A stretch of 64,000 nt of DNA, taken from the NCBI GenBank assembly GCA_030390025.1, contig CM059432.1, positions 54,562,001-54,626,000 on the forward strand, written 5' to 3'. The position numbers were made by a program, and so were the translations under genes. How positions within the stretch are numbered: the first letter of the stretch is position 1; every line of letters starts with the position of its first letter. The notes beneath the pieces were generated by a model. The model was given only the letters and a program-made list of their open reading frames with translations, was not told the DNA's origin and made no database searches. Source of the DNA: Squalus acanthias. Its lineage: Eukaryota. Below, piece after piece: positions 11,791 to 56,159 of the stretch.

Positions 11791-12060
11791 ATGTAATTTA
11801 TAGTTATTTTTAAAATGTGATGTTTTTTTTTCTATTTATTTGTAGTTTTAGGGATGTTTTGGGGCCGATCTGTATTCATAGATTTGACAGGTCTATGCCC
11901 TACACACTAACTATGCCCCTGGGATACGCAAGCACTGCACGCCGGCAGTTGGAGGAGGCCCAGGACCGGAATCCCCCGCGGGCCCAGGGGCAGGCGCGGT
12001 AGGTAGGTGCGCGCGCGATCCTTGCACCCGCGGGAAGCCAGGGAGCCGAATTTGTGGCCC
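11790..12060 (+). mobile_element. Right half of a Harbinger MITE related to 44647-45411
   Basis: Ends in CCCGCGGGAAGCC...CCGAATTTGTGGCCC; shares ATTCATAGATTTGACAGG and GGAGGAGGCCCAGGA with 45150-45411. Confidence 0.75.
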
Positions 12061-16043: not shown

Positions 16044-17261
16044 TCTGCTGGTATATATGTCAGTTTAGGATGAGATGTTATAAGCGCTCAGCCAATGTGG
16101 AGAGAGGTTATTCCAAGGAGGTCACTGTGTATATAGATTTCACAACACACACTTATGTTCAATACACCTGAAATATGTCTTCCAAATCCTGAAATCAGAA
16201 ATCAGAAAGTTCTGGCATCTGAAATTGAACTGTTGTGGCAGATTAGCTTTTATGCGACAGTTGCAGCTGTGAACTATTCAGCTTGTTGGAAGACTCGACA
16301 CAATCAGCTGGCGTGTTTGTCAAACGACGTGGAACGCGGTAAAAATGTGGATAAATTGAAAACCCTCTCAAAATAGCAGTTAACAAGTAGTTAAAAAGCT
16401 GTTAACTACCTTAAGTGCCTCTCCCGCCACTTGGTGTCGGGTCTGATCTGAAGTCGCAGACCCGACACTTTGGAAAGTCACGTGGAGGCAGGTTCGCGGT
16501 GGGTTCACAACCCGCCATCAATCATGTTGGATTTAACTCCTGACCTGCCTCCAAACCTGCCTTCTGAGCACCAGCAAAATCGCAGCCTAAATGTGGGTAA
16601 GCATCTCAGGAGTAGTGACCAGTATATATTAAAGTTTAATGTCCAAATAGAAAGGGATAAAAGCTTACAGAAACAAGGACACCAGATTTTAATAAGACAG
16701 ACTTTGGAACGATTAGGAGTGAGCTGGCTGAGGTGAGCTGGAAAGGGAAATTGGCACACACAACTGTAGACAAACAATGGGATATTTTTAGAAAAGGAGA
16801 TTGCAAAGGTGCAGAATAAATATTTATCATTAAAAAGGAGAGTACTTCAAGTTTCAGAATACCGTGGCTAAATAAATAGGTTCAAAACAACCTAAAATTG
16901 AAGAACAAAGCATATGGGGGCATATAGGTATGATAAAATGAGAGAGAATGGCCTAGAAATTGGATATGGCCCGAAAATGGGCGGTGTCATCGCCCAGCAC
17001 TATTTGGCTGCGCCTGTTCTAAGTGGTCCGGGCAGCACGCAAAATTCGTGCTGCCTGCTCATTTACATGATTGGAGTGCTGATCGCAGCGCTAAACGCGC
17101 AGTTGATTGGCTTACCGCTCAACAGGTGGGCCAATATTGGGTGCAATCTAATGGCCATTAATGTTTGGTCTAGTCTTTCTCCACTACTTAAAGGGGAGGT
17201 ACTTTGATGTAGCAGCACTTCATTGTCATTGGAGTTGGAGCTGGAATTGCAGTTGGAACGC

Positions 17262-29218: not shown

Positions 29219-29974
29219 GGCCCGGATTTTGCAGTCAGCAACAAAGTGACTGTGCTCGCTGCCGACCTTGAAGAAAGCTGCTCACAAAGTTTTAGCGGGC
29301 TCTGTGGCATCGATTTCCCATTTTCCGATGTGACTTTCCACCTGTCGCCGTCTATAGGGGATTTCTGGTGTGCAGCAACAGTGATGTCATCAAGCAGGTT
29401 GAGCAGCCAATTGAAGAATTCTCACAGGCAGAAAACCAAGAAGTAAAAAGCAGGTTTTATCATTCACTTTTTAATCATTTTACAGAAAGCGAAATAAAGA
29501 TTGGGACATACACATGGGATTAAGGTAAAAGGTGAAATATCATAAACAAACTTTAAAAAAAATAAAAATTAATTTAAATTATTTTAAAAATCTATGGAAT
29601 TTTTATCATGGAATGGAGGAAATGACACTCCACAATATAAAATTAGTTTTTCAGGGCCAGAGAGTTGTTCAGCAATAATTATGACTTAGTATGCTGTTAA
29701 AAACTCAGTTACACCTCATTCAACAAGGCTTAACTTTTTCAAGGGTTTTTACAGCAAGAATAATGCATAAAAAGTTAAAGTTCATGTCAGGTCACTGATT
29801 CTGTGTTGATTGCAGCTGCGAAGACTGCAACAGTGCACCCTATGGAGAAGCAGGGTATCACTGACAGAAACCTTCGGATTTCCGCATTTAACTGCGCATG
29901 TACGGACGCCAGAAGTTGCTGTCAGTTTTATAGAGTAATGACAGTAAGCGTCATTACAACCGCAAAATCCGGGC
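29219..29974. mobile_element. Harbinger-type MITE, family B-like
   Basis: Termini GGCCCGGATTTTGC / GCAAAATCCGGGC; internal similarity to 41563-47172 and 58492-59145. Confidence 0.75.
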
Positions 29975-30047
29975 ATTGAATTCTGAATTTCAAATCTTTT
30001 CATTAAACTAAAAAGTACTAAAAAGATTCGCATTACTAAAAGTTGGT

Positions 30048-35035: not shown

Positions 35036-37492
35036 GTGCACAATGGGATGTGTCTGCAATCTACATATCACATGTCTAACTCATGTCTTTACTCTCCCAC
35101 AGGACAATCCATAGCACCCCTCCCTACTGTCCAGGAGGAAGAGCAGGAGGACTCCTCAGAGGATGCTGCATCCTCTGAGGGAGCAGCGTCGGTAGAAGTG
35201 AGCGCACCCAGCACCAGCGCAGAGACGCACACCTCGGTGGGTCATTTGCGAGATAGAGTAGCATTGTCACCTGGTGTATCACAACTCACGAGTGAGCAAG
35301 AGCAGATGGTGGAGACAGGGACCGCAGTGGAGAGTCCTCGTCAGAGGCCGCAGGACGCTCCTAGCTCTGCTCAGCTGCATGTAGACACTGAGCCTCGGGG
35401 GCCATCCAGAAAGAGAGCAGTGCTGGAGTTTCAGGGACAAGTGCAGGAGGTTCTGACTGGGTTTGCAACTACGGTGACTGCGAGTGTGCAGAGAATGGAG
35501 GAGACCATGTCAAACATGAGCAATGCCATGGTGCACGCAATAGCGAATATAGGTACTGCCTACAGGAACATGGTGACTCTTTTAGATAGATGGTCAGATA
35601 TGGAGGATAGATGGGCATCTATTGTGGAGAGGATCCAGAGGTATATGGACGTCCCCGTTATGAGAACTGTCAGTACAGAGACGGGTCCTCATGGCCCCAC
35701 TGATGTGCAGCAAGGTGCTCTCCAGCTACTTGCTAGCAGAGAAGTGCGGGTGGCCCATGAGAGGGATGATGGTGGGAGGTGGCATGCAAGTGGGGGCTCC
35801 TCTCCAAGCACTCATACTTCCATCCCCTTGCCAAACCCTCGGTCAGAGCCCCAGATGACTGCCCGAGCAGTGATGGCCGAGTCTGCTCAGCTGCACGTAG
35901 ACACTGAGCCTCGGGGGCCATCCAGAAAGAGAGCAGTGCTGGAGTTTCAGCCACAGGAGGAGCAGACTTTGGCGGGGCCTTCACAGGCTCCAAAACCCAG
36001 CGGACGACCGCCAAAGGCGTCTAAGCAGGCGCAGCAAGGAAGTGAGCAGGCTATCTCTACATCTGCTGAAGCCACAGGGGTAGCACCACGTAGAAGCACG
36101 CGTAAGATAAAGCTGACACATAAATAATCACAATGGTACTCACTTGGGTGTTCTGCTAGAATTCAATGTAAAGTTTCTGTTCTTTTATTCTGTTAGAATA
36201 AATTAATGTGGTATGAATATTTGACATCGTTGCCATATGTGTGCTCACAATTTGAAGTGACACTGAAGTATGAGGACGTCTTTTATGTCCAGCAATGCAG
36301 GTGACATTGGATACAGAGTTAACACTACACATTTACAGCCTCAAGACAGAATGGGCTGGATTTTGATACTGGGGCGGGTTGGGGTCGTGTCATCCACTTT
36401 TCGTGTTATCCACTCGACTGCAATTGGATGTGGGACATTGATGCAATTTTCACCTAATTGGGCAATTGAGTTCCAGCATGTGGGAATCCATGAACCAATT
36501 AGTGTTTTCAGTCTGAAAATCGCCTCTGATGATGTCATCATTGCTGCTGCATTGAAGGTCTTCAGAGACTGCCTGGCCTTTGCTGTGAGAGGACCTGCAA
36601 AATGAGCAGCAGCAGTCCTAAGTCTGCTCCCAGATATTTTTACACCACCACTCCCAGATATGTCTCCTCTCCATCCATCCATATATACATCCATCCACAT
36701 AGCCATCCATATATGCATCCCCATAGCCAGCCAGCCAGCCAGCCAGCCGGCCGGCTGGCTAGTCATAGTCAGCTCTCCAAATGTGCTCCCGCCAGGTTTC
36801 ACATTCGTGGTTCAGAACAGGCATGCTTCACGTAGAAAAAGGATTAAAATCACAAAGGCCTTTCAAAATAGCATTATAGAGGCAATTTAGTGCTTGTTAA
36901 GGGCCTTAACAGCCTATCCCGCCTCTTAGAGGCGGGGCGGAATCGGGACCAGCAGACACGATTTAATGAAAATTGTGTGGAGGTGGGATGGAGGCGGACT
37001 TATGCCCGCCCGCCAGTTTTCGCAATTTTAACCCCCCACACGCCTCCAAACCCACCTCCACGGGTCAATGAAAATCCAGCCCAATATGTCTCCCAAATCA
37101 TGAAATCAGCAACCTCTGACACTTGAAATTGAGCAGATGTGAGATTGCAGCTTTTAGACTGCAGTTGCAGCTGTGAAGTATCCAGCTCGTTGGTCCTCCC
37201 GACACACTTAACTGGCGTGATCTCCGAATGTCGTGAAACCCGTTGAAAATGTTGGAAAATAGGAAAAGTCTGTCAAAATAGCAGTTAACAAGCACTTAAC
37301 AAGGAGTTAAGTGCCTTAAATCCCTTACCTGCCGCTTGGTGTCGGGTCTGTTGTGAAATCGCAGACCCGACACTCTTGAAACGCACACGGAGGCGGGTTC
37401 GCAGCGGGTTTCCAACCCGCTGTCAATCATTGCGACTTTAACTGCTGACCCGCCTCCGAACCCAGCCTCTGAGCGCCGGCAAAATCGTAGCC
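35036..37492 (+). mobile_element. Internally deleted Harbinger of the 12375-16587 family (Myb exon 3 kept, transposase and left end missing)
   Basis: 35036-36270 aligns to ~13470-14680; 37083-37492 aligns to ~16170-16587 and ends AAAATCGTAGCC; exon 3 is open to the stop at 36127. Confidence 0.85.
36353..37082. mobile_element. MITE derived from the 50379-54661 Harbinger family (730 bp)
   Basis: Perfect 12-bp TIR GGGCTGGATTTT; TSD AAT (36350-36352, 37083-37085); both subterminal regions align to the ends of 50379-54661; central (ATCC)n/(AGCC)n filler. Confidence 0.9.
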
Positions 37493-39139
37493 AAGGCTTT
37501 TATTTTACTTCAATCAATTATTTTGAACACATGAATTTAAATGCGTTTGCTGGTCAAACAAATTGATTTAATGATGTTGTACTTACCTCAGTGTACTTCA
37601 TCCACAGTGAACATGATGCTAATTTATTTTTGATGGTGATGTCAAGGTGTCTATTTATTATATATACAGTCCATTCACATGATTTCAGACTTCAGAGATG
37701 AATCTCTCAAATTTTATGGTCCACTCAGGCTGAGAATCATGTTAATACCAGGTGACCAAGGGCCCACCTGCACCATTATTTTTCAGTCTAAGTGGCTGCT
37801 GCAGGAAAACTAGTGTAAATCTAGGAAATTCATGATCGCCATTGACTTAAATGGGAGGTGAAGCTATGAGAATCAAATTTTTGAGGTCTCGGCAAAGGGT
37901 ATAGGTGGAGCAGCGCAGAAGTCCCAGGAAATTATGGCACGACATGAAAAATGGCGTAACTCGCTTGCGACATCATTTCCTCTGTCTTTTACAGTGCAAA
38001 TTGAATGCGCAAGTCTCCAGAAAATTCTGGGCCATTGTTTCAAGCCTCCAAAACATTGCTCAGTGAACACCCTGATTTTAGCTTGGGACTCAGTGTAGTG
38101 CTTCTCAGCTCTATTGATTGAAGAGAATACCTGGAATCCCCGAAGAGCCAGGTATCCAGTCCGCCATCTCTGTGGAACAGTTCTTGAAAGTTGAACTGTG
38201 GAAAGATGTAAGAATCATGGCATCTCCCCAGATACCTGATGTTAAAGAGGTGGGTACACAGATTGACATCGCACTAATTTTGTATGGTACAGCTTATCCT
38301 GATGAAGTCTGAACTCCTGTCAAAACTCCCATGGCCTTTTGAATGGGGTCTGAAACATAAAGGTTTAGGCTGTGGTTACTTTAAGAGTTATGGACAGAGG
38401 TATGCTCGCAGTGCATTGTTCCTCTTGTGCCACCCCAAGATGGCACAAGACATCTAACCAATGATGTCCAAGGTAACCACAGGCACTGCATGCACTGCTC
38501 TACAGTCATATCCAGGTAGTTGGTGCTGAGGTGGTAAATGCATTCCTGTGAATGGCTGCTGTGAGCGTTCTATGCAATCTGTGTGCCCTTTCAGCCCTTT
38601 ACCTTCTGTGCCTATGCATTAAATACAAATCAGGCAGGGTGTACAATGGACAACCGACAGTTTTCCACCTGTATGCAATGTGAAAATTACCCCCCTTCAC
38701 TCCAGTATGGAACCAACAGATAAGTCCAATTTCTGTCAGCAGTGGCAGTTGCTGCTGCTACCTCAATTTTAGATATTCTCTGATGAGTTTAACGCATTTG
38801 ACAATGAGCACTAGATCTAAAACCTGATAAAGAAATTAGCCCCATAAAACACAACGAAGGCCAGGATATTCCTTGGAGCTGCTGCCTACTGTTTACCTGC
38901 GTTAACAGGATTTCCACTGCACTTCTGGCGAAGTAACGCCAGTGGGATGGCAGCAGCTCTGGGGAATTTCCTGGGTTTAGTGTTAACACAGCTCAAAGAA
39001 ATATTAATGCCATGTGCGCTATTTTCCAGTTGGCATTCAGTCAACAGAAAGGTTACCTGGACTCAGCAATAAATCCCTCAGATGCCTAAATCCAGAGACC
39101 AAGCATTAACACAACCACGCGCACAACCTACTCACTTAC

Positions 39140-39217: not shown

Positions 39218-39380
39218 CTGGAATAGAGGCTCACAAATTAACCCCAAATTTGACCCAATCAAGAATTTAATTAAATTTGGCCAACATCTCTGCTATTATA
39301 GCCTTCAGCCTTTCAAAGAGGTCAAAGCAGGTTTAAGCCAGTTTTACATATGTCTGTGATTTGCACCAACAAATAATTCA

Positions 39381-40349
39381 GAAAACACCAGGGATGGTAG
39401 GGGATACGGCAATACAGTGATAAAACACCAGGGATGGTAGGGGATACGGCAATACAGTGATAAAACACCAGGGATGGTAGGGGATACGGCAATACAATGA
39501 GAAAACACCAGGGAAGGTAGGGAATACAGCAATACTGTGAGAAAACACCAGAGACGGTAGGAGATACGGCATTACTGTGAGAAAACACCAGAGACGGTAG
39601 GGGATATGGCAATACAGTGAGAAAACACCAGGGAAGGTAGGGGATATGGCAATACTGTGAGAAAACACCAGGGACGGTAGGGGATATGGCAATACTGTGA
39701 GAAAACACCAGGGAAGGTAGGGGATACGGCAATACTGTGAGAAAACACCAGGGAAGGTAGGGGATACGGCAATACTGTGAGAAAACACCAGGGAAGGTAG
39801 GGGATACGGCAATACTGTGAGAAAACACCAGGGACGGTAGGGGATACGGCAATACTGTGAGAAAACACCAGGGACGGTAGGGGATATGGCAATACTGTGA
39901 GAAAACACCAGGGACGGTAGGGGATATGGCAATACTGTGAGAAAACACCAGGGATGGTAGGGGATATGGCAATACTGTGAGAAAACACCAGGGATGGTAG
40001 GGGATATGGCAATACTGTGAGAAAACACCAGGGAAGGTAGGGGATATGGCAATACTGTGAGAAAACACCAGGGATGGTAGGGGATACGGCAATACTGTGA
40101 GAAAACACCAGAGACGGTAGGGGATACGGCAATACTGTGAGAAAACACCAGGGAAGGTAGGGGATACGGCAATACTGTGAGAAAACACCAGAGACGGTAG
40201 GGGATACGGCAATACTGTGAGAAAACACCAGGGAAGGTAGGGGATATGGCAATACTGTGAGAAAACACCAGGGAAGGTAGGGGATATGGCAATACTGTGA
40301 GAAAACACCAGGGATGGTAGGGGATACGGCAATACTGTGAGAAAACACC
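39381..40349. repeat. 40-bp minisatellite, ~24 copies
   Basis: Unit GAAAACACCAGGGA(A/C/T)GGTAGGGGATA(C/T)GGCAATACTGTGA, head to tail with no indels. Confidence 0.98.
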
Positions 40350-41089
40350 TTCTAAGATGAGAGAAAATTTTGAAGTACTATAGCTTGGAAATTAGGCTCA
40401 ATGATGTTAACCTACTTATTTTAAACAAATAAATGCCTCTATTAAACAGAGGAATTTGATCTAAACATGTTAATCATTCATCTGCTAATATCGTTCTGCA
40501 TAATTTCTAAGCTTACATGCAAATAATTTTTAAAAGTAAACTAGAACTGTAATGTTTTATATTATGATTCGACTATACCCAGAATTAGCAGGAAAATTAT
40601 TCGATAGTTCAAGCAGTAGCACTTCTATTGGAAAGGTTTGCTTAAACAAAATATTTTTTTATTTATAGTTTGTTTCCAATATTGTTGAAATTCTTAATTA
40701 TATCTTTTAGGCTTAATGACTGATGCAGTAGTGATTCAACAACTCATCTCCTAACTCTTTAAACATATAAGCAGATGTGTGATTTAATTCGGACAGAAAA
40801 TAGAGCAAGAAAATTGAAGGCTTAATGTTATTCCTTTACTTGCTGTAATGGTGAAGTACCATCGGATTAAGTTGGATGTAATGCACATCAGCAGGCTGTT
40901 CACTCATATATCAGTTGGATGTTCTTCAACTTCGAATTAGCTAAGTGAGGCTGAAACAGGGTAAGCTGATTAGTCGCTTTCCAAGTGGAGCTTACTAAAA
41001 TGAGTTTGATGCAATGTGTTCCTTCTTAGTTCTGTTTGTTTTTCAAAATGTTGCTAGGGCGGGCAGAGATGGCTAATTATATATTTTTT

Positions 41090-41375: not shown

Positions 41376-42268
41376 TACTCCATACTTGATAGTAAGAGAA
41401 AGAGAAATAAAGGAACCAGATTGATTTAGAGGTGAAGTTCAACTTGACTAGACTTGATACAAAGTAGGTGAATCACCTGTCTGATGAACCAGATCTCTTA
41501 GCCCTGTATAGTAATATGCACAGTCGAGATGATTTCTTTAAAAAGCAGATTGACAATATAAAGGCCCAGAATTTGTGGTCAGCGGCAAACGCTTCCAAGT
41601 AAGCTTTGCAAATAGATCTCACAATCTGTGTCAAGAAGTTCGGGTTTTCCGACATTCAATTCAAATCAACGGAGTACAGTGGGAATCCCCTAATGCAAGC
41701 TGCTGTGACGTCAGCAAGCTGTCTAAGCAGCCAATCAAAATACAGAATTCTCACAGGCAGCAAACAAGGGAAGTGGGTAAGCTCTTAAAACTCTAAGGGA
41801 GAGAAATTCACCATGTTAGCGCCTCCCGTTAGTGCCTGGGGCGCTAACGGGGCGCTAATGTGTTTCCGGCAGGACGCGGCAAATCCAACGCCGCACGCGA
41901 CATTCACCCAGGATTTAGCACTGCCAATAACATCGAGCGTCTACGCCTTTAGCAGCTGCCAGATCGTGATGTCAACGCATGTGGAACGCCCCGTTAACGG
42001 CCCAAATGCAAAATTGACTGCCGCCCCCTGCCTTAGCGCCTGGCGTGAACAACAGCAGGAAGAGGAGGCGTGATGCAGTCAGATGGCTGCTGTAGGAGTG
42101 GTATTTAAAGGCATCAACATCCGGTTTGATTTTAGTCGCCACTCAATGCTGCCTTCTCAGTTTGACATAGGAAAACAGCTGTTTTCACTGAGGTAAACAT
42201 TCTGGCTGCTAAAAATTTGTCAGTTTCAATGTGCTGAGATTGCAATCTCCTACACTTGTATACGTTAA

Positions 42269-43520
42269 TTGGGGGCTGTACTGGCACTTAACCTCGCTCT
42301 CCAGCATCAACGTCGGAGGCAGCGGAGGCAGAGACAGAGATTGGAAAATGTGGCCAGAGTGAGGAGGGCCAACAGGGCTCTCAACAGGAGGCCTTAACCA
42401 CCCAGGGTATTCCGGGAGCACTTCTCCTACATAAATTTAACTGAGGAGCAGTGTCTTAGGAGGCTCCGCTTCAACAAGGAGGTGGTCACAGAGCTCTGCC
42501 ACCTCCTGCAGCCAGACTCGAGCCTCAGATCAGGACCACCACGGCTCTCTCAGTGGCAGTCAAGGTCACCGTCGCCCTCAATATCTATGCCAGCGAATCC
42601 TTCCAGTCTGCAGCAGGAGACAGATCTAACTTTTCACAGTTCGCCGTCCATTGCTGCATCCAGGAGGTCACAGAGGCTCTCTGCAGAAGGAGAAGGAACT
42701 ACATTTCCTTCCCCATGACCAGAGAGAAGCAGGACAAGCGTGCATGTGGCTTTGCCAGGATAGTGGGCTTCCCTATGGTGCAGGGCGCCATTGACTGCAC
42801 CCACGTGGCTTTGCGGGCACCGCATGACAATCCTGAGATCTTCTGTAACCACAAAGGATACCACTCACTTAATGTGCAGCTGGTGTGTGACCACACACAG
42901 CGAATCCTCACCGTCAATGCCTGCTATCCTGGCAGCAGCCACGATGCCTTCATCCTGTTCCAGCTCTGTTCCAGCCACCACATCAAGCTCGTGGCTGGCT
43001 GCTGGGAGACAAGGGCTATCCGCTCTCCACCTGACTCATGACTCCACTCCACAACCCCAACACTCCTGCCCAGCACTCATACAATGAGAGCCATGCCACC
43101 ACCAGGAACATCATCGAGCAGACCATCGGAGTGCTCAAGCAATGGTTCCGCTGCCTTGACCGCTCGGGAGGAGTCCACCAGTACTCGGCTGAGCGGGTGT
43201 CCCTTTTCGTCGTAGTGTGTTGCATGCTGCACAACTTAGCCATTATGAGGGCGCAGCCATTGCCACCAGGCATAAAGAAAGAAAATAGAAAGACTTGCAT
43301 TTATATAGTGCCTTTCATGACCACCGGGTGTCTCAAAGCGCTTTACAGCCAATGAAGTATTTTTGAAGTGAAGTCACTGTTGTAATGTGGGAAACCACCT
43401 CAGGAGAAGGAAGAGGGAGAGGAGGAAGACGAGGAGGAGGAGGAACAGCAGCGAGGGAGGAGGCAGCCATTCAATCAGCCTTCTGGAAGTGACCGCCTCA
43501 TCACACTACGGTTCCAATAA
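42269..43520 (+). pseudogene. Harbinger DDE transposase, frameshifted
   Basis: [42 protein letters not shown]; interrupted by a SINE tail. Confidence 0.92.
43272..43392 (-). mobile_element. 3' tail fragment of a Deu-type SINE inserted in the transposase gene
   Basis: TTGCATTTATATAGTGCCTTT...TTTTGAAGTGAAGTCACTGTTGTAATG, similar to 24990-25080. Confidence 0.7.
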
Positions 43521-43685
43521 ATTCTACCCCACATCCCGGTTGCTGACCACATCCCCATCATTCCATCCATTTTGTTTGCCAAAGCACAGCGCAAAGCTGA
43601 AATGAGAGACATCACAAAATCAGCAACATTTCATTAATAAATTTATCAACATTCAATAAACGCATATATACAACAACAGTATTAA

Positions 43686-46333
43686 CTAATCACTCTTGTG
43701 CAAACCCTTACTTCCCCTCTTTACAGTGCCTTTTCCTAATCTACTGCTCCTACGTAGTCTATCCCCAGTGGCTGCAGCAGGGCTGGTGGAAGGCTGCTGA
43801 GTGTCGGTGCCAGAGACTACAGATGGCCTTGCAGGTCGCCCTCGACCAGCTCTGGGCCTGGAAGGCCCGGCTATAGACTGCACCACCTCAGGCTGGGCGG
43901 CGGCAGTCTGGGCTGGTTGGATGACAGGCAGCGACAAGGGCAATGACGGAGTGGCAGTAATGGGAGCAGGAATGTTGTCATCCTGTGAGAGGACAGCAGG
44001 TTCCTGCTCGAATGACACACTGCCACTCCCTGGGGCAGCACCTCAGCATCCCTAGCCATCTGCTGGAGCACAGATTGCTGGCCTGCTGCAGCACCGTGAG
44101 ATCCCCAGTGGACTGTGGTGGACCCAGCGACGATGGCAGCAGTCAGAGCTTTCATGGCATCAAGCTGAGGCTGCATCAGAGCATTCTGAGACTCGATGGC
44201 AGCAACGATTGACTGCATGACAGCACTAAGACGTTGCTTGGCTTCCACCTGTGCTGCAATGGATGCTGCCACATTACCCATGATATGCAGCATGAGGTCT
44301 GCATCTCCACGGTCTCTCAGGGAGTCCACCATCCTTCGCAGACTGCCACGGATGGGCTCCATGTTGTGCGCAGAGCTCTGTGCAATGTTGGAGGCGGACT
44401 CCTCCATGCTCCTTACCATTGCCGATAGGCTCTCGGGCACCCTTGCCATTGCACCTATGATCGTGTGCATGCCTATCACCCTTCTTGTGAACACCTCCCC
44501 ATCGAGGCCCTCATCTGAGTCCTCTGCAGCAGAACATGTGCGCTGGCCCCTGAGCTACCCTTTCCCCGTGGCCTTGCTGCAGTCCACTCATCCCCAGTGC
44601 ATCACCCAGTGCAGACCCCTCTACTAAACTTGCCTCTAAAGATAGTGGGGCAGAAATTCGGCTCCCCACGGGTGAGTACGCGCTGTGTACTCACCTGTAG
44701 GGCCACCGGAAGTGCCGGTTTCGCGCATGCACTGCGCATGCACAGGAAACCGGAACTTCCGGTCTTGTGAAGGAAGGAGTTCGTGGGTCAACCGCGTGCG
44801 CGGGAGAGGCAGCGCGCACGCAGCGAACTTCAGCTTTTTTTACAGGTTTCTCCGTGCGGGTAAGTCCCTAGCAGCTGCGCGGGGAAAAAGCAGGCGCAAG
44901 GCCTGCTTTTAACAAGGTAAGTGGTGAATTAAGTAAAATTAAAACATTTTTTCCATAGGTTTATTATTTTTAAATACTTTAAAGAAAGGTAAGTTTATTT
45001 TTAGCCCTGTTAAAAACTGTAATTAATTTTTTCAAAAATTTAAATTATTGTTTAAAATAGTTATTTTATGTAATTTATAGTTATTTTAAAAATGTGATGT
45101 CTTTTTTTTAATTTTTTTGAAGTTTTAGTTAGGTTTTGTGGCCGATCTCTATTCATAGATTTGACAGGTCTTCCTGTCAAATCTATGAATGGAGATTCCC
45201 TGCTCCGATTGGCTCCCCATGGCCCATGTGATCCCAGGGGACGCTTCGAACTAACTGCGCCGCTGGGATCCGCGAGCACTGCACACCGGCAGCTGGAGGA
45301 GGCCCAGGATCGGAATCCCACGTGGGCCCACAGCACAACGGCAGGCGCGCTATGTAAGTGCACCTGCTATGCTTGCACCCGCGGGAAGCCTCCGACCCGA
45401 ATTTCTGGCCCAGTGTAGTCCCAGTATCTGAGCTGGTGCCTGCGGGTGAGACATGCAGTGATGCGGTGCTTTCTTCTTCCTCCTCTTTTCCTGCCTCACT
45501 CTCACTGGGAGGCTCAGGGACAGGCTGGTCATCTGGTTGCTGATTACCTGAAAGCATAAAGGCACAAGAGTCGCGTTAAGGTGAGGGAAGGGGGGCAGGA
45601 AGGGAGCAAGGAATGTAGACATTCTCAGGAGGTGGGAAGTGAGAAAGGTTTGTGGTGTGAGGGGGAAGTGGGATGAGAGAAGGAGAGGGGATGAACATAC
45701 CATTATTGCCCCCAAGGGGGTCGACATCGACATCGCCGACGGCGCCCACCACCTGGCGCCCAATGACTCTCAACACTCGCTCCTCCAGGTCTATAAGCTG
45801 TTGGATGTCCATTTCACCCCCACCTGTTCGTTGCTGCTCCCTCCTATTTTGGGCCAACTTAGCCTGCAAGAGAAAGGAAAGTGTGTGAGAGAGTGTGCAG
45901 CTATGTGTTTGGGAGATGTGCCTGTGATAGTTGAATAGCTGTGATTGTAGGCAGGGTGTGAGATGTGGATGTGAGTTTTAGTAGGTAGAGATGCTTGGTG
46001 GGTGAGTGGTGGGGGTGTGGTGGTTTGTGCAGTGTGTGCAGACTGAGGTTCAGATGCTGGTATGTAGGACTTGTTGAAGCATGTACTCACCCGGACCACC
46101 CGAGAGAGGTCATTGAATTTTTTACAGCAGTGTGTGAAGGTCCTGAGGACCAGACTGCTGGCCGAGACGGCCTGGGCCACTTCGCTCCACATTACCCTGA
46201 AGACCTGGGGCAATGGCCTCCTGCCAGTGGCCAGGAACAGCACTGCCCGCCTTCTTTCGACTGCCATGACCAATGCCTCCAATGCCTGGGCGCTGAAACG
46301 GCGAGCTCCCTCCCTGGGACTGGGATCAGCCAT
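43686..46333 (-). pseudogene. Harbinger Myb-like gene (exons 46333-46091, 45863-45701, 45547-43686)
   Basis: MADPSPREGARRFSAQALEALV...WSEVA...KKFNDLSRVVR; GT-AG introns; exon 3 interrupted by a MITE and frameshifted. Confidence 0.87.
44647..45411 (+). mobile_element. Harbinger-type MITE, family A2 (765 bp)
   Basis: TIRs GGGGCAGAAATTCGG / CCGAATTTCTGGCCC; TSD AGT (44644-44646, 45412-45414). Confidence 0.9.
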
Positions 46334-47198
46334 GGGGATAAGAGGTGTAGCTGTTGAGTTGCTTGGAGGTCGCCTTCAGAGCCAGCAATGTTGAGAATGA
46401 GGTTGTGCTGAATCTTCAACCTCCCCTTTAAGAGCTGGAAGGAGCCAATGTGAATGATGAGTCCCGATTGGAGTGCACCTGAAATTGGTTATCGCTCTGC
46501 GGGTAGTGCCCTGCTCTGTGTGTGTAGCGCCCTAAGTGAGGTGATTAGCGCTTGATTTAGCGCTCCAGTTTTCCCTTGGAGCACTAACAATCAATTTAGC
46601 GGGAGGTCAGAAGGATTAACGCCTGGCACTAATCCTCCAACTTTTTAAAATTTAGCGCCCCACCTGAGGCGATAACAAATTTCTAGCCTTAACTTTTTAA
46701 AAATATTAGAGGGAGCAAAACAAAGATTGGGGCTCTCATTTTTTTTTTAAAGTTTCTTAAAATGTTTAATTTTTATTAAAATGGATAAATTTCACACTGC
46801 GCAAAATTAAAATTAGTTTTTCAGGACCATAACCTTTGTTTAACAGTCAATACGTTGTTAAAACCCCAGTTACACCGAATCTCTTTGGGTCTAACTTTTA
46901 GTGGGGAATTTAACAGAGTAATTACTGCGGTTGAGCCGAAGTTTTCGTCAGTTTCCCTGATTTGGCTGATTTCACAGATTGCCGGCTCTGTGTAGGGGTT
47001 GGGGGGTGGGGCACAGTGCGGCCAATGTCGGAGCTTTGAATGACAAACCACAACTTCAGGATTTGCGCGTGTGCCTGTGCATGCACCAAATTCCGAAGTG
47101 TGGTCAGTTTCAAAGGCGTAATGACGGTGAACGCTGCCAGTTCGCCATCGTCCAGACCGCAAATTCCGGGCCAATTATTGATTCTCCAGATATACATG

Positions 47199-47959
47199 AA
47201 CCCTGAATTTCCGACCCCCATGGGTGCGTACGAGGTGTGTACGTGCCCATAGGGGCCGCGCAAGTTCCGGGTTTAAGCATGCGAAGCGCATGCGCTGAAA
47301 CCCTAAACTTACGATCTGTCAAGAATGCTCTTGACAGATCATCCGCATGCCCGGGAAAGTGCCTCTGCGGGTGAAGAGTTGCGTTATTTGCTCAACTTCC
47401 GCCCGCTGAAAGACCACAGAATTCTTACGCCGGGCGTAAGACCTGCTTTTACCAGCATAAGAGTTTAAAAAAATAGAAAAATAAGATTTTATCACTCACT
47501 TATAAATTAAAAACCCTGCCCAATAAGGTAAGGTTATATTAAGCCCCGTTAAAACCTATTAAAAATAAATTCAAAAAATTAAATTTTTGTTTAACATATT
47601 TAATTAAATGCCGTTTAAATTAATTTTATATATGTAATGGTTTTTATTTATTTATTTCAATGTGTTAGTGCATTTTTGCAGTCATCCCCATTCATACTTT
47701 TGACAGTTCTGTACGTACGGAACTGTCAAAAGTATAAAGGGGGATTCCATTCTTCCATTGGTTGGGCTGGCCCACGTGATCCCAGGGGCGCTTGTGAACC
47801 GCATGCGCCCCTGGGATACCTGGGCCTCTGCGCATTTTGATGAAGAGAGGCCCAGGATCGGAAGCCTCGGTATCTACGGAACCAACAGGTAGGTTCGTAG
47901 AATTTTTTCTGATTGTAGGCATCCGCCCGCAGGAAGCCTCCGATCGGAAATTCAGGGCC
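47199..47959 (+). mobile_element. Harbinger-type MITE, family A3 (761 bp)
   Basis: TIRs (AA)CCCTGAATTTCCGA / TCGGAAATTCAGGGCC; TSD ATG (47196-47198, 47960-47962). Confidence 0.85.
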
Positions 47960-48199
47960 ATGATTTGTGAATTAATTGCTTTTACTTTCCTATGTCATGA
48001 GGGTTGTATACATTGAAAGAATAAAACACGTGTTCACACTGACCTATAAAGAAATGCTTGTTTATTTATCTTGATGAACATGAAAGCCATCAGCTTGAAA
48101 AGACTACAGGAGCAGTGGGTAATCATGTGAAACTGAATATGTTTCATTCAGTATAATTGTTGTCTGAGATCCTGAGCTCAGATGAACTCAAAACACTGT

Positions 48200-49981
48200 G
48201 GGGGCAATTTTTCGGGGTTCAGCGGGTGCATTCGGTGGCGGGTCAGGTGGGAAAATATTTTTTGACAGCGGGTCAGGAACCCGCTGTCAACCCGCCGCCA
48301 CGTGACTTTTCCAAATATCGGGTCTGTCAGGGCTGAACAGACCCGACACGCAGTGGCAGGGGAGGCAATTCAGGTCATTATGACCTTGTTAACAGCCTAT
48401 TAAAAAGTATTTTGAGCTCACCTTACCATTTTGCGAGGTTGCCCACAGGGTCCACGCTGCTGGGGATCACATCAGGTAAGGAGGTCGGGAATTGTATCAC
48501 CATGGGATCATCTCATTACTTGACAGCTGCAAATGTGCTATAAAAGGTCCCATCTCACAGCTGTTCACTTTCCAAGCTCAGAAGCTGTTGCTTACTACAT
48601 TTGGAAAACAGATTGAGCTTTATGCAGGTTGCAAGTGTTTGGAGCAAACACTCTATCCAGTGTCACCTCATTGGAACAACCTGTTCACCACTGACAGATC
48701 GCTTCTGTCATCTCAAGTTCATCTGCCATCTATTACATCAGCATCAGTGCCCTTGATACTATCTCACCTTGGTCCTCAGAATCCCACCATGATAAGCCCC
48801 AACACCAGCAGCACCAGGCACATCAGCAGCACCAACAACAAGACCAACCTTCTCCGCAATCAACTGACGCTGCACAGGACAGAGGGCATCAGCACCCGAC
48901 CATATTGCTGCCCGTGAGGCGAGGGAAGGCCTCACCATGGCTAGATTTACTTCACTTGACGCTGTAAACCCTGGCTGCCACATGATGCGCCAGGTTGGCA
49001 CCACCCCACACCAACACCATAAAGCATCCCTACAATGCCCAAGCCATTCCTTTCTCACTCATCGCCATTGCGGGGGGTACCGTTATGTCTCACCATTCAC
49101 TGCAACTCACTAAGCCACTTCGAAAGATGCACACAAATCTGTCCAAGAACACAAAGTGTTGAAAATAAAGGTTTCAATGTTTGACACCACATTAACAGAA
49201 ACTTTACATGAAAATTGCATAAAACACCCAAGTGCCTACCCTTGTGTGTTGTTAGTTGGTATGATTGGACTAGGGTGAGGGTGAATGTGAGGGGTGGCTA
49301 GTGAGATGGGGAAGTAACAATGTAGATAGAGAGGGACGGGTGGAGGTGCAAGGTAAGTTGGTGTGAGTAAGGATTGCAGGAGTAGGGTAGGGAAGGCAAA
49401 GTGATGGGGATGTGATGAGTGGCACAGCAGGATGAGGTTGAGTGTGGCTTTGCAGTAACGTTTCATGATCTACTGAGATCATTGAAAGGTTTGCGCTACT
49501 GCAGTCTGGTCCTCCTGACCACATCCCTGCTTTTGCCCTCCTGTGCAATGTGCAACCAGGCTGTGTTGATCTCCTGGGGAGGTCTCTTTCGCCCATTGGA
49601 AGGGAAGAGAACCTTCCTGTGTGCTGTGACTCCCTCCATAAGCATATGGAGGGAGTCATGGGAGAGCCTGGGTGCAGCTCTGCACCTCTGTGTAGAGCTT
49701 GTCAGTGTCTGCAGCACCTCAATGTTGTAAAACACTGACAGCACAACTGTCAAAATCAATTTGCGCATGGTCCCTTTAAGGAAACCAACTGATCACACGT
49801 CATCAAGTGATGTCATCAGACTCGCTTCCTTCAATTGGCCGGCAAACGCACTGGGCGGGCTTTACAAGTCCAATCAGTGTAAAATCATTCTACACAGCGG
49901 GCTGGAGTCAGCAGCGAGGTCGGGACCCATCACTGACGTCGCCCACCACGGATCCACAGAGGTTGGGGAAATCGCAGCCCC
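48200..49981. mobile_element. Internally deleted Harbinger element
   Basis: Termini GGGGGCAATTTT / AAATCGCAGCCCC, probable TSD TGT; transposase 5' relic at ~48790-48900 (+) and Myb exon-1 relic at ~49450-49700 (-). Confidence 0.7.
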
Positions 49982-50908
49982 TGTTCCAGTTTGGATGGAA
50001 GGAGAGACCTCTCATACGATGATTTGGAAAGAAGATGCTGTCCATTATAATGAACTGAGGTTTCCACAATAACTGGTGATGACTTTGTTGATACATTTTC
50101 TAAAAATTCAAAAGAAATCCAACATATGTGTTTGTAGCTTGTGAAAATAGATTTGTTTGAAGAATCAAAATGAAATGTCAGTGTGTTATAATATGCTGTG
50201 AATTGCAGTTATTAAATATTGGTCCTACACAGCTTTGCACACTGCCACTCTAACCTTTCTGTTGGTAACAATGTATGTTTCTCTTCCTTCCATAAACATT
50301 TGGCTTATTTGAGTTCTATGCAATGATCAGTTCAAAGTAATGAAAAAGGTAACTCATGAAACACTCTACAGACTTTTAGGGCTGGATTTTCAATGACCCA
50401 TGGAGTCGGGTTTGGAGGTGTGTGGGGGGTTAAAGTTGCAGATTCGGGGGTCCCGACCCCATCCCGACTCCAACCCGCCTCCACGCAATTTTGACAAAAT
50501 CGGTCGCGGGGTTCCCGACTCCGTCCCACCTCCAAGAGGCGGGAGAGGCCATTAAAGCCCTTAACAATCCCCAAATTGGCTCAGTAATGCCATTTTGAAG
50601 CATTTTAGGTAGTTTAACCCTCTTCCCACGTGAAGTACGCCTGATGTGAAACACGCCAGTGAAACCTGGCGGGAGCACAAGTGGATTGCTGACTCTCAGC
50701 TGCAGCTCAACCTTTAAATAGGAGATTTGATCAGCCATCAATTGCAGGTGGCAGGACTTTGTTGTCACAGGTCTGGTGGAACTTTTAGAAGGCATAACCA
50801 CAGCTCTGGAAGTTTGGAGCCTGACACCCATCTGCAGTGTGACCTCCTGGGAAACCCCTCTCGCCACCCTCATTGAGCGCTTCCTCAACTGAGGCATATA
50901 CCAGAGGC

Positions 50909-52161
50909 ATGGGAGCCATTTATTTCTTTCCCTCCTGGGCATCCGATGAGGACGAACAACAGCCGTGGCACCAGCAGAACCACGAACAACAGCAGCACCA
51001 ACAGCAGCAGCAACAGCAGGAGCGCCAAGCTGCTGCTCACCCACCTGAAGCTGCACAGGACAGAAGGGGCCAGCGCATGGAAGGCCGTCGGCGCAGGAGA
51101 TACCCCCCAAACAGGGTCTACAGACAGAGGGTCAGCTACCTCAACATGTCTGAGCAGCAGTGCCAAAGGCGGCTCCGACTTTCGCGACAGGTAGTGGGTG
51201 ACATCTGCGCAATGCTGCAACAAGACCTGGAGCCCAGAGGACCAGGTGGACAACCCTTACCAGTGCCCGTCAAAGTCACCACCGCACTCAACTTTTTTGC
51301 CTCAGGCTCATTCCAGGGATCAGCAGCAGACATCAGCGGCATCTCCCAGGCGGCCGCACACACCTGCATCACGCAGGTAACCGATGCCCTCTTTGCCATC
51401 GCGCACAATCATATCCATTTCACCAAGGATCGAGCAAGTGTCACGGCGCGTGCGGTTGGATTAGCTAATCTGGCAGGCTTTCCAAGGGTGCAGGGCGTCG
51501 TTGACTGCACACATGTGGCCCTTAAGGCACCCCGTCGTAATCCAGGTATTTTTGTCAACCGCAAGGGCTTCCACTCCCTCAACGTTCAGCTGGTGTGTGA
51601 CCACAACAAGGAAGTTCTGCATGTTTGTGCCAAGTACCCTGGCAGTTGCCATGACTCCTTCATACTGCGCCAGTCTAGTGTGCCTCCGCTATTCAGTCCG
51701 CCAGACCAACTTCACGGATGGCTACTTGGAGACAAGGGCTATCCCCTGAAGACGTGGCTAATGACGCCGTTGAGGAGCCTATCCAACGCAGCTGAGGAGA
51801 GCTACAACCCCAGCCACATTTCCACCAGAGCCATAATCGAGCAAACCATCAGTATGCTGAAGATGTGCTTCAGATGCCTGGATAGATCAGGTGGAGCCCT
51901 GCAATACTCAGCAGCCAGGGTCTCCAGAATCGTCCTGTTTACTGTGCATTTCACAACATGGCACAGCATCGTGGCTTACAGATGCCGGAGGACCAAATGG
52001 CTCCTCACATATCCTCCTCAGATGAGGAGGAGGAGGAGGAGGAGGAGGAGGACAGAGAGAACGAACAAGTTGCAGAGGCCCCTCAATCAGCGGCAGCATT
52101 ACGCGAGACCATAGCTGCCCGGAATGCAAGGAACGCACTCATCTTGGCCAGATTTGCTTAG
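50909..52161 (+). pseudogene. Harbinger DDE transposase with a single apparent frameshift near 51935
   Basis: [10 protein letters not shown]...GVVDCTHV...CHDSFIL...LGDKGYP...RAIIEQTI; C-terminus (HNMAQHRG...LARFA stop) continues in the 51958-52161 frame. Confidence 0.93.
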
Positions 52162-52418
52162 CCTAGACAAGAAAGCACTTTTGCCTCGCAGCTTCTTACC
52201 AGAGCTACGACAATGGCCCAGACCCAGTGGATCCCTAACAATGTGACCACCATACTGACAATTGCAAGTTATCCTGAGGCCTCATTGTGGAAGTCCCATT
52301 AGCAAAATGACAGATGCCACAACTGCAGCTGTAGCCATCAGAGTTTTTATTTACACTTTACACCTGATGGCTTTTTCACATTAAACATCAAAATCCACCC
52401 AAGTGACTACCCTTGTGA

Positions 52419-54384
52419 CTATTTGTGCAGTTTCTTTCTCTTACGCGTGCTCCTACGTGGTGCTTCCCCTGTGGCTTCAGCAGAAGTGGAGGCCCCCTAC
52501 TCAGTTTGTTGCTGCTCCTGTCTCGACTCCTTTGGCGGGTGTCCTCTGGGGTTGCGAACCTGCGAGGGCTCGGCAACAGTCTGCTGCTCCTGCGGCTGGG
52601 CAGGGGTTGAGACGCCGATCTCACTTGGGTGCGGACTCTGGTGGGGCTCTGACCGAGGACTTGTCAGTGGCATGGAAGTGTGAGCGCTTGGAGAGGAGCC
52701 CCCACCTCCTTGTTGTGTGCCACCAACATCCCTCTCATGGGTCAGGTCCACCTCAGCGCTTGCAAGTGGCTTGAGAGCACCTTGCTGCACATCAGGGGGG
52801 CCATGGGGACCCGTATCTGCACTGGAAGTCCTACTCAGAAGGACTTCCATGAAGGTCTGGTTTCTCTGTTCAATAGATGACCATCGCTCCTCAAGAGATG
52901 CCAGTCTATTCTGAACAATGACCATGTTTTCTGCACTCTGGCGACTTATCTCCTCCATAGCCGTATCCATCCTCTCCTCTACTGTAGCCATCCTTTCCAC
53001 GGAGGTTGCCATCCTTTCCGTGGTGATGCGTTCATGCACCAATGACTCCACAAAGGCTCTGCTGATGTTCGCTATGGACTCCTCCATTCGCTCCACACTC
53101 GCAGCGACCCTGGAGACAAAACCTGTCAGAGACTCCTGCATCTGTTCCTGGAGTCCCAGCACCGCTGATCTTATGGATGGACCCAGAGGCAGAGGGTCGA
53201 CATGCAGCTGAGCCGAGCTAGGACAGTCCTGCGCCCTCCGACTAGAACTCTCCACTGCTGTCCCTGTCTCCACCATCTGCTGATGCTCACTTGTGAGCTG
53301 TGATACACCAGGTGACAACACTACTCTATGTCCCGAGGGTCCCACCGAGGTGTGAGTGTCTGCGCTGGTGCTGGGTGCACTGAGTTCTGCTGATGCTGCG
53401 CCCTCAGAGGTTGCAGCTTCCTCTGAGGAGTCTGTCTGCTCAGGCTCTTCCTCCTGGCTAGTGGAGACGGGTGCTTGCGATGGTCCTGTGGGGGAGTAAA
53501 GGAAAGAGTCAGAGATGTGATGCCAAGGTTACATGCACATTGCATATTGCAGATGATCATAAATCCATCTGTTAGAGCTTCAGATTCATTATCAGCGACT
53601 CATGCAATGTCAATGAGAGAGATGGAACACTATTCAGTCACCAGCTTGCTCTGATGCATCCGTCTGTCCGTCCCCCACTTGCGTTTCCTCCTCTACGCCC
53701 ACGATCTCCAGGACCGCATCCTCCCAGGGGGTGAGCTGGGCTAATGAGGGTAGCCCTCCTCCTGTCCTGGCTCTTTCCCTTTTATTGTGAGCTCTCTTTT
53801 CCTGCAATGAGGGAGACAAGTGGAGTTTGAGTGAGAATAAAGGATTGAGTGTAGAGAATCCATAGCATAGATGCTTAGAAGGAGACAAAGATGGATTGAG
53901 GTGGCGACACTAAGGGCCCTCCCTGTGTGTTGTAAGTTGTTTTCAAAGCATGACAGTGATAGGTAGTGTGAGGGCTGCATAGTCGAATAGTAAGGTGAAT
54001 GTGACCATAGAGGGAGAGGGAATGGGTAAGGGTGCATGGATGTCAGTGTCAAGTGGGATATGGAGGAAGAGGTTGCTAAAGCTGAGTGCTGGTGAGGAGA
54101 GGCAATGGGGATCAGATTGAGGGTGAAGGGAAAGTCATACTCACTTTAGCAGTACGTAGAAGGTCATGAAACCTCTTCCTGCACTGGATCCAGGTTCTGC
54201 AGGTGAATGATAAGGAGGTGACCTCCTGGGCGATCTGGACCCACACAGCCTTGGTCAGCTGGGGAGGCTTCTTCCTCCCTGAGGAGGGGAAGAGCACCTC
54301 CCTGTTGGCTCTTGCTCCATCCACCAAAGCCTGCAGGGCAACGTCATGGAATCTGGGAGCAGCCCTGGGCCGTTAGCTGGCCAT
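52419..54384 (-). pseudogene. Harbinger Myb-like gene (exons 54384-54145, 53801-53642, 53485-52419) with two nonsense codons
   Basis: APRFHDVALQALVDG...WVQIAQEV...RTWIQCRKRFHDL; GT-AG introns; TAA at codon 4 and TAG at 52497-52499. Confidence 0.88.
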
Positions 54385-55256
54385 TCCTGCTGCAGGTGCT
54401 TAGATTTGAGGTCCAAAAGCTTGGCAGCCTGCAGAGGAAGCAAGGCTTGTTGCAAACCTTAAATGCAGCAGCAATGATGACGTCATCAGAGGCGACTTTC
54501 AGACTGGAATAACTCATTGGCCATGGGTTCCCACATGTTGGAACTCAATTGGCCAATTAAGTTAATATCGCATCATTCATCCACATTAATCTGGAGTCGG
54601 GGGGGCAACACGAAATGTGGGTAACACGACCCCAACCCGCGACAGTATCAAAATCCAGCCCTTAAGGTCTGTTTGATATTAAAGTAGCTGCACCTTATCT
54701 GGATCTACCGTAATGTTTTCCAGTTTTATTCACATTGGCATTTGATGATGATACCATAGAGAAAAAAATTGTATTATTACAATTATATTAAAGTGTTTGG
54801 AACCACCACCACCAATCCCCGATTGCGCCTGGGACCCCAGTCGCCTCGAGACCCCCCACCGACTGTCGGGGAACGTTCCCACTGATCCCCGGCTGCGGCC
54901 GCCTGCCGTCAAATTCCTGCTCCCAGCCGCTGGTCAGGTAGTGGATCAGGCTGGATTCGGGCAGAACTCTGGGAACATTTATGTAAATGAGGCCCAGCCG
55001 TTAAGATCGATTGGGCCTAATGGCTGGGCCTCCATGTTACCGGACTCCCCAAGTGCGCCGTCTGTTTAAGGGCTCACGGGCACCGTAACCACTGCCCCTT
55101 TAAAATAGGGGCCGTAATTTCTACATAATGTGATAGCTGATCCAACAGTAGAGAAGAGTGACACAAAGGCTTTTGTGCATTTAATAAAATATATATTTTT
55201 TTTTTTAAATCATGCACTGGTTTGTATAATTGTGCAGGAGCACAAACTGACATAGT

Positions 55257-55409
55257 GGGGGTAATTTTGACTTTCGGCTGTAGGGTAAAATGGGCGATAT
55301 CGGATCAGCCACCCACTATACAACTCTCCCTATTTTCAGGAGAAATGTATAACAGGTGGTAGATCTGATTCCGCTCGTTTTCCATTCGCCCAAAGTCAAA
55401 ATTACCTCC
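55257..55409. mobile_element. Short palindromic Harbinger-type MITE (153 bp)
   Basis: TIRs GGGGGTAATTTTGACTTT / AAAGTCAAAATTACCTCC; TSD AGT. Confidence 0.8.
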
Positions 55410-56159
55410 AGTGAGTCTGTCGGCATAGTTATACATACTGCTATAGGAATATTGTGAGCTTCTGTGTCAGGAGATCACATTGGGACTGCGAAGAACAGGT
55501 AGCTTACCAGCCACTGCACAAGAGGGAAGCAGTTGTAGCCCACTCCTTAGTGCAGCCCGAGGCCGAGGATAATATAGAAAAGGTGCTCTGGAAAATGAAA
55601 AAGGGCTTACAGCAGTTCTTCAAAGAGCTGAGAGAGACCAATGCTACAAGTGCAAGAGGGCTGGGAAGCCACTGGTAACTCTTGAAGCAAGTAAATGGGC
55701 TGGAAGCATACAATCTGGTGTGATGAGGGGAGTAAACTCAACTGCCGCAGATGTCAGGAACAAGAGCATGCAGAGCATTAGTACTGGATTTAACAACAGT
55801 CCAACTACCAATTTGAAGTCAAGTACTGGCCAAGGAAGAATTGGCAGCATACTGCCTAGGATGTCATTGAAAGGTGGAGGACCCAGAAGAGACATCTCAT
55901 ATTGAAGATATGGAGAAGCATGTCTATGGCGCCAAGAGGACAACAACATTGATTTGCAATAATAGGACAGAAACAACCAAGGCCATCTGTGAGGTCTTCT
56001 TAGATCTAGTTTCAGTAGCAGGAGGAACCTACAACAAGAAAGAGGTCAACCAAGAAAAGTAAGGGAAAGGCTGCAACTGCAAAGTATTCTCTTTTGTAAC
56101 ACAGACTGAGTGGATGCAACTGGACACCAAGGATGAATAAAGCCATAAGGAAAAAATTG

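Follow-up and report, generated by a model that had tools for sequence, protein, structure and literature searches.

What holds a series of long hairpins in place within short transposable elements of diverged families? The question is raised by a 64,000-nt stretch of the Squalus acanthias genome (GCA_030390025.1, contig CM059432.1, positions 54,562,001 to 54,626,000, forward strand), here called the window, in which positions are counted from the first letter. A first-pass annotation, made from the letters alone, had described there four transposable elements of the miniature inverted-repeat kind (MITEs), namely two copies of family A (labelled A1 and A1b) and one element each of A2 and A3, with hairpins H1 to H5 following one another from the left end. 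This study found that the hairpins are real and covarying, and that the elements carrying them are non-autonomous PIF/Harbinger MITEs, ordinary in their ends. The reading preferred here, which has about an even chance of being right, is that the internal palindromes are cis-sites at fixed spacing that dimeric proteins recognise in duplex DNA, their symmetry being maintained by arm-to-arm copying.

Stems, covariation and conservation

All four elements lie where the first-pass annotation had placed them, with lengths of 744, 743, 765 and 761 bp (A copy 1, A copy 2, A2 and A3), H1 of A copy 1 is the perfect dyad it had reported, and H4 and H5 were found at their reported places (Table 1). Each element contains 4-5 stems with a score of at least 10, compared with 0.10-0.20 on average and never more than 2 in 40 shuffles preserving local composition, and 18 of the 52 such stems in the window fall within the 3,013 nt of the four elements. 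The compensatory change that had been described is also present: in an alignment of the four sequences 19 of 81 stem pairs have changed on both sides, a number equalled in none of 500 shuffles, while slid partners gave 1-7. Strict swaps of one Watson-Crick pair for another affect 6, 7 and 6 of the 48 pairs of H1, H2 and H4 in the three family comparisons, with about 1-2 expected; these covariation figures are not exact probabilities, because the structure was derived from the same sequences and the comparisons share branches.

The extensions of the inverted repeats at the two termini (TIRs), which pair across 700 bp, likewise change on both sides, in 3, 6 and 4 of 18 pairs. Between the two copies of family A, 7 one-sided and no two-sided changes were counted in 48 pairs, a comparison of little power since only 0.3 two-sided changes are expected. 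Adjacent paired swaps are present in H4. Further variation was seen in contigs of other samples, for which A2 served as the only reference and 40 of 244 variant rows were used. Unphased contigs of sample X6 show a C-G to A-T swap at 44706/44762 (94%/97%) and at 44792/44823 (98%/99%); in samples X5 and X7 the X6-type variant pairs are poorly matched (18%/1%, 17%/2%, 44%/95%, 65%/97%). Pair 44724/44744 changed on both sides, but to T·G, which is not Watson-Crick. In X6 and X7, loose contig ends carry the right arm of H4 in its A-type form, and the T at 44696 in H1 of A2 is private to that copy, C being found in 84-99% of contig depth. The H3 right arm shows C>T at 44817 (partner 44798, outside the rows used) in 96-100% of depth in X6 and X7, which creates a GTAC core like that of H1.

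The hairpins had been described as conserved by position and pairing rather than by sequence. This does not hold for A, A2 and A3, which are alignable homologues (identity 70% for A-A2 and 64% for A2-A3) with stems better conserved than their surroundings. In a leave-one-out control, in which stems were defined in one family and identity was measured between the other two, stems remained more alike than the non-stem GC-rich parts (84/124 vs 200/349, 70/114 vs 148/337 and 84/115 vs 207/348; p = 0.04, 0.002 and 0.01), and therefore they are conserved by both sequence and pairing. Invariant columns make up 59% of stems and 21-29% of non-stem GC-rich parts. Invariant cores of these three families are GTAC-N7-GTAC, two GCATGC, ATTCATA..TTT.ACAG and ATCCCA..TGGGAT.

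The series is also less uniform than had been proposed. H3 stands in A and A2, but the hairpin quoted for A3 lies at a different axis and the true segment is broken. H5 is confirmed in A3, while in family A only about 6-7 of its 10 pairs are left. H4 occurs in A, A2 and A3 with a loop varying from 4 to 16 nt, though its pairing is not intact in family A, both copies of which have a two-pair defect in the middle of the stem. Among features particular to one family are a new perfect palindrome in A (956-967 with 1024-1035), a filled H4 loop in A3, and CGCATGC, which A3 carries six times.

A fixed H1 axis in distant families

Four further elements, B, C, C2 and C3, widen the group. Intact B- and C-type elements are 730-757 bp long, and lengths in the whole group are 730-765 bp. 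Alignment scores exceed the null maximum for A3-B (63 vs 49), B-C2 (98 vs 37) and C-C2 (168 vs 44), whereas A-B and A-C alignments are no better than the null. The axis of H1 nevertheless lies at nt 37 in six elements (both A copies, A2, A3, B and C2) and at 37.5 in a seventh (C3), with arms in B, C2 and C3 that share only 4-7 of 15 letters with A, and at this distance the claim of position and pairing over sequence holds in part. Across the 7 sequences 11 of 15 H1 pairs covary, which was seen in 0 of 500 shuffles, and six pairs hold the same pair in 5-6 of the 7. H1 of C2 is decayed, and its H2 axis lies at nt 97. H4 was not found in B and C. A covariance model of H1 recovered its 7 training sequences, their mirror matches and the deleted C copy and no further complete H1, the weaker matches being other TIR ends.

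Promoter-like motifs

Motifs resembling promoter sites keep their positions as well. An NRF1-like 12-mer has its top or equal-top score at nt 86-87 in A1, A1b, A2, A3, C, C2 and C3, that of C being at the shared position once the H1 deletion is allowed for, and its third-best score there in B; it stays (nt 86-98) while the axis of the enclosing H2 stem shifts from 88 to 97. Near the right end a CCAAT box and an E-box are 12, 12, 12, 11 and 10 nt apart in the five elements measured, and in four of these five TATGAA in the left arm of H4 lies 54-65 nt past CCAAT (55 nt on the - strand of A2). The E-box of A2 reads CATGTG, the form CACGTG accounting for 79-99% of depth across four runs. Human NF-Y sites have an E box at -12/-11 and a TATA at +50, and NF-Y and USF1 are able to bind closed chromatin (PMC3730095). 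Contigs of sample X19, which may be RNA, cover 30 of 30 A2 bins, with no splice among 15 of 130 joints, which is uninformative on expression.

Interpretation of the palindromes

As protein sites, the palindromes would work as follows. The MITEs would form one old, diversified group, and two-gene Harbingers would supply, in trans, the transposase and Myb-like proteins that move them. H1, with its centre 37 bp from the end, is a candidate site for an element-encoded dimer that would help to assemble the transposition complex at the left end, and H2 and the H4-H5 region are candidate sites for host promoter factors (NRF1-like and ETS-like; CCAAT and E-box), which would hold a copy in open chromatin and hence within reach of the transposase. 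Selection would act on lineages that go on transposing, not on resting copies. Matched changes would arise by the copying of one arm onto the other through template switching in replication or gap repair, restoring symmetry in one step even at letters read by no protein.

This reading is supported by the fixed distance to the end, conserved letters within dyads, promoter-type spacing and covariation. The fixed axis of H1 counts for it together with the stationary NRF1-like motif, as do the six kept H1 pairs together with the leave-one-out conservation of the stems, and the CCAAT/E-box spacing of 10-12 nt matches that of NF-Y sites (PMC3730095). The two-sided change of the TIR extensions over 700 bp provides an internal control, and the one-sided decay between the resting A copies points the same way with little power. 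Template switching can create and repair perfect stems in a single event (PMC8794818), which fits the new palindromes (47313-47340, 47819-47856 and 956-967/1024-1035), the filled loop of H4 in A3 and the paired swaps in H4.

Several points weigh against it. The phased analysis comprises 7 sequences from a single 64-kb window. Stem arms of 14-24 bp are longer than typical half-sites, the H1 pairs that covary, often among three pair types, are more numerous than protein contacts need, and the H4 stem is kept despite a loop of 4-16 nt, as in a hairpin. H1 is confined to one end, with arms that recur nowhere else in the element, in contrast to the 7-mer arrays of autonomous ends; no cognate protein was identified, since no autonomous element in the window has H1. 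TATGAA is a weak TATA match and is missing in B, and NRF1, ETS and NF-Y/USF are names given to candidate sites on the basis of consensus motifs.

Long arms, broad H1 covariation and the variable H4 loop are explained better by selection on the fold itself than by protein contacts, and such selection is a possible, if unlikely, alternative. Under supercoiling, or on single strands in gap repair, H1, H2 and H4 would then form extruded DNA hairpins or cruciforms, which would be recognised by their shape or would help the element to be copied back into its donor site. Pairs of H1 covary across families that can barely be aligned, and the first 120 nt, folded on both strands with DNA energies, give z of -4 to -9 in A1b, A2, A3 and B, though without strong folding in C2. 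The two unphased swaps in X6 contigs come from another organism, but their sites are poorly matched in X5 and X7. Inner repeats of piggyBac have been proposed, not demonstrated, to be recognised by structure (PMC12324416), and replicative transposition of PIF/Harbinger MITEs is possible through homology-dependent repair (PMC10288884). A selected fold does not easily accommodate the mid-H4 defect, which is fixed in both A copies and accompanied by the A-type right arm in loose ends of X6 and X7, nor the missing H4 of B and C, the loss of H3 in A3, the short H5 of A and the shift of the H2 axis under a motif that stays. It is similarly doubtful that the cut-and-paste mobility of a vertebrate TIR element depends on a hairpin or cruciform centred exactly 37 bp from one end that is read by shape. 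If it did, any Harbinger transposase that happens to be active could serve many MITE families of divergent sequence, and NRF1-like and NF-Y/USF-like host factors would supply the open, supercoiled state for extrusion.

Compensatory change had been taken by the first-pass annotation to imply selection on a fold. Selection on something symmetric is supported, since this change does occur and constraint acts on the stems; a fold as its target does not follow, because template switching makes perfect stems and mends pairing in one step (PMC8794818), and because the TIR extensions covary alike over 700 bp, where a protein dyad is the usual explanation. It is improbable that this documented mechanism (PMC8794818) acts alone, making and re-perfecting palindromes with no selection beyond a few short motifs. 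Family-specific new palindromes, clustered paired changes and the lost H1 centre of the resting copy C would suit it, and the H4 loop difference between the A copies, in part consistent with an inversion, is suggestive only. Unbiased arm copying, however, would not be expected to give stems a higher sequence conservation than the parts beside them, H1 is still found at nt 37 in elements that can otherwise barely be aligned, and old copies gather one-sided changes that go unrepaired. A structured non-coding RNA, transcribed from the - strand CCAAT/E-box promoter or from the + strand H2 region and having the stems as helices, is very improbable. It could draw on the covariation, promoter-like spacing and donor-like motifs, and on z values for the A2 fold of -17.9 (+) and -11.3 (-) in 20 shuffles, which are inflated by uneven composition; covariation alone is no evidence for an RNA when it occurs in a transposon. 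In the proposed comparison of wobble tolerance, G·T and A·C were about equally frequent both among the five named stems (16 vs 13) and among those of the left half (13 vs 14), so that no bias was seen, while right-half stems hold 11 G·T vs 3 A·C on the + strand (p = 0.057, AT-core stems included); all these are counts from single copies, in which private decay dominates, as for the one G·T in H1 of A2. Rfam gave no match at the gathering threshold, 6 microRNA-model matches (E 0.47-0.97) being far below it, dyads are perfect down to a centre of 1 or 0 nt, and H1, held at a fixed distance from the end of the DNA, lies upstream of the candidate left promoter. Of the three options originally offered, dyad protein sites thus fit best, a DNA fold keeps a place, and structured RNA is the least supported. 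An apparent strand-specific G·U bias in the A2 folds was gone under a symmetric count.

Identity and mobility of the elements

The window is rich in PIF/Harbinger elements, with about 30 similar TIR ends detected. TIRs are 14-21 nt long in A, A2, A3 and B, and the 3-bp target-site duplications (TSDs) are exact in three of the four named elements (AAC, AGT and ATG), ATT/AAT in the fourth, and inexact in B, C, C2 and C3. Ends of the GG(G/C)C..GAAATT type are common to the MITEs and two-gene Harbingers. Neighbouring frames match DDE_Tnp_4 and Myb_DNA-bind_5; only stop-to-stop frames of 115-135 amino acids overlap the MITEs. To call these elements an undescribed system was therefore too strong, their ends being those of ordinary PIF/Harbinger MITEs. 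Small size favours PIF/Harbinger transposition (PMC10288884). Length is a weak clue, since the element at 36353-37082, both ends of which match the two-gene Harbinger 50379-54661, is a plain internal-deletion MITE without strong hairpins and is likewise 730 bp long. Two other identities were rejected: a single-strand HUH transposon (IS200/IS605, Helitron) is ruled out by the TIRs and 3-bp TSDs, and a piggyBac-like element would have a TTAA target duplication, which these lack.

A2 is aligned by 13,571-53,463 contigs in samples X5, X6 and X7 (three organism labels), a depth that is not a copy number. Loose contig ends at its TIR agree with each other at only 0.37-0.47, and empty sites skip 768 nt (765+3), or 771 nt with 3 letters between. 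The disagreeing ends, the empty sites differing by 765+3 nt and the contig numbers together point to an abundant, once-mobile family. A2 lies inside the Myb-like gene region of the Harbinger at 41797-46689 (TSD TAA), and a paralogous empty site of its insertion was found near 61640. At the three positions of its AGT duplication most empty host copies read CAC, CGC or TGC.

Within the window, no autonomous Harbinger sharing the subterminal sequence of the MITEs was found. A metagenome scan for further copies gave 1 locus, matching a short seed stretch only and taken as chance. Viral contigs gave 0, 0 and 4 loci. Of the loci compared with profiles, L001 and L002 show short matches only, and L003-L005 none. 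For prokaryote genomes searched for further copies the count was 0.

The insertions form a three-level nest at 41563-47172, in which a C-type MITE contains the two-gene Harbinger 41797-46689 and this contains A2. A copy 1 splits a short repeat (770-872, 1617-1690), presumably a shark short interspersed nuclear element, exactly at the foot of the repeat's own 29-bp hairpin. Among 28 TIR flanks across the window, A stands at -7 in 23 and C/T at -4 in 22, a target preference common to the families. In A, A2 and B, but not in A3 and C2, the centre of H1 is similar to the target-site pattern A-N-N-Y-NNN-R-N-N-T, which is too few letters for evidence.

Table 1. Positions of the MITEs and of their stems and motifs in the window
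Feature	Position	Strand	Remarks
Family A copy 1 (A1)	873-1616	-	TSD AAC
H1, A copy 1	1565-1595		Perfect 15-bp dyad
Family A copy 2 (A1b)	5774-6516	+	93% identity to copy 1; TSD ATT/AAT
H4, A copy 2	6267-6305		
Family B (distant)	8514-9252	-	739 bp; H1 axis 37, different arms; CCAAT/E-box 10 nt apart
Partial A2-type copy, right half	11785-12060	+	H4-to-H5 stretch deleted
Family C (distant)	29219-29975	-	757 bp; H1 centre deleted (~14 nt)
Family A2	44647-45411	+	765 bp; TSD AGT at 44644-44646 and 45412-45414
Left TIR of A2 with family-specific extension	44647-44664	+	Pairs with 45394-45411; 18 nt, 89% complementary
H1, A2	44664-44702		Axis nt 37 from end; core GTAC-N7-GTAC
H2, A2	44705-44763		Outer stem, axis nt 88; ETS-like arms around two GCATGC
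NRF1-like 12-mer in H2, A2	44733-44744		
H3, A2	44794-44821		Axis nt 161.5; kept in A and A2, broken in A3
GGTAAG motifs (three), A2	44859-44993	+	At 44859, 44916 and 44988; splice-donor-like, candidate donors leading into AT-rich core
Extra hairpin, A2	44886-44910		Similar stem in B at 9009-9038
H4, A2	45145-45196		24-bp arms; perfect core 45151-45190
CCAAT box and E-box, A2	45208-45230	-	CCAAT 45208-45212, E-box 45225-45230; 12 nt apart
H5, A2	45230-45270		
C-type C2, left part	46693-47172	-	Right part 41563-41796; split by Harbinger 41797-46689
Family A3	47199-47959	+	761 bp; TSD ATG; two outermost TIR bases decayed
H1, A3	~47215-47255		
H2, A3	~47259-47313		
Perfect 12-bp palindrome, A3 only	47313-47340		Axis nt 128.5; no homologue of H3
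H4, A3	47684-47745		
CCAAT box, A3	47757-47761		Right end
E-box, A3	47773-47778		Right end
H5, A3	47779-47817		
Perfect 11-bp inverted repeat, A3 only	47819-47856		
C-type C3	58416-59145	-	~730 bp, left boundary approximate; H1 axis 37.5

Neighbouring dyads and repeats

The ends of the autonomous elements (41797-42046/46440-46689 and 50379-50628/54412-54661) contain family-specific 7-mer arrays in both orientations, with 7 and 4 copies, which are candidate sites of the Myb-like proteins. For the most part, no arrays of this kind were found at the ends of the MITEs. Another group of Harbinger-like ends (~16180-16590, 37100-37494 and 48199-48450) has its own dyads, with axes at ~78-83 and ~134-139, and a donor-like motif. 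Three consecutive near-perfect dyads occur at 19711-19749 and 20116-20195, two of them with TGACAG/CTGTCA; this hexamer, which recurs in H4 and in the A3-only hairpin, is taken here to be a TALE homeodomain site. The window also contains very small fold-back elements (~8370-8460, 38859-38990 and 55258-55410), which measure 95-150 bp and have ends like those of Harbingers, and a tandem array of 40-bp period (39260-40479).

Comparison with known systems

Two questions are touched by these elements, namely what lets MITEs outcompete the autonomous elements they derive from, and which features inside the ends are read by PIF/Harbinger proteins. The group amounts to an experiment of nature at very high copy number, in which a dyad stays at nt 37 and has conserved letters within it, surrounded by letters that covary. 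Each copy brings a promoter-like module and donor-like motifs, and the group may thereby have influenced how genes are regulated in these genomes. IS200/IS605, REPINs and Helitrons also have hairpins at a fixed distance from the end, but the MITEs described here differ from them by their TIRs and Harbinger-type 3-bp TSDs.

In their ends they resemble zebrafish Harbinger3N_DR and rice mPing, which have TIRs, a 3-bp TSD, no gene, and two-gene partners in the genome encoding Myb-like and DDE proteins; there the Myb-like protein binds subterminal sites, and internal sequences tune transposition (PMC2836001, PMC9710019, PMC9921582). The internal regulatory regions of mPing and mPong share no homology or motif, their effects being attributed to GC content or nucleosomes, and neither 'hairpin' nor 'secondary structure' occurs in that paper (PMC9921582), whereas long covarying dyads at fixed positions are seen here. 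Coral CMITEs have an internal region conserved across families and proposed to be relevant to transposition, but they are about 100 bp long and piggyBac-related, with palindromes unmentioned in the text covered (PMC2872659).

Internal palindromes with NRF-type sites are already known in a Xenopus Harbinger MITE (PMC12676858). This element, Harbinger-N12A_XT, and the Kolobok T2-MITEs, which include long-lived subfamilies, are vertebrate MITEs with internal palindromic repeats, but are 342-496 bp long, and neither covariation nor a fixed dyad axis appears in the text covered (PMC12676858, PMC6004289). The literature searched, a partial coverage with Repbase and Dfam outside it, contained no description of dyads in Harbinger MITEs that covary and keep a fixed position.

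The closest match to H1 in the way it may work is the subterminal palindrome of piggyBac and piggyBat, which lies near one end, at a similar place and with unrelated sequence between relatives, and is read by a dimer in duplex DNA; these transposons differ in belonging to another superfamily with a TTAA target, a single transposase and shorter, imperfect palindromes (PMC11707139, PMC12324416). Seen beside these systems, the hairpins of the window are a real, well-ordered cis-architecture within ordinary Harbinger MITEs.

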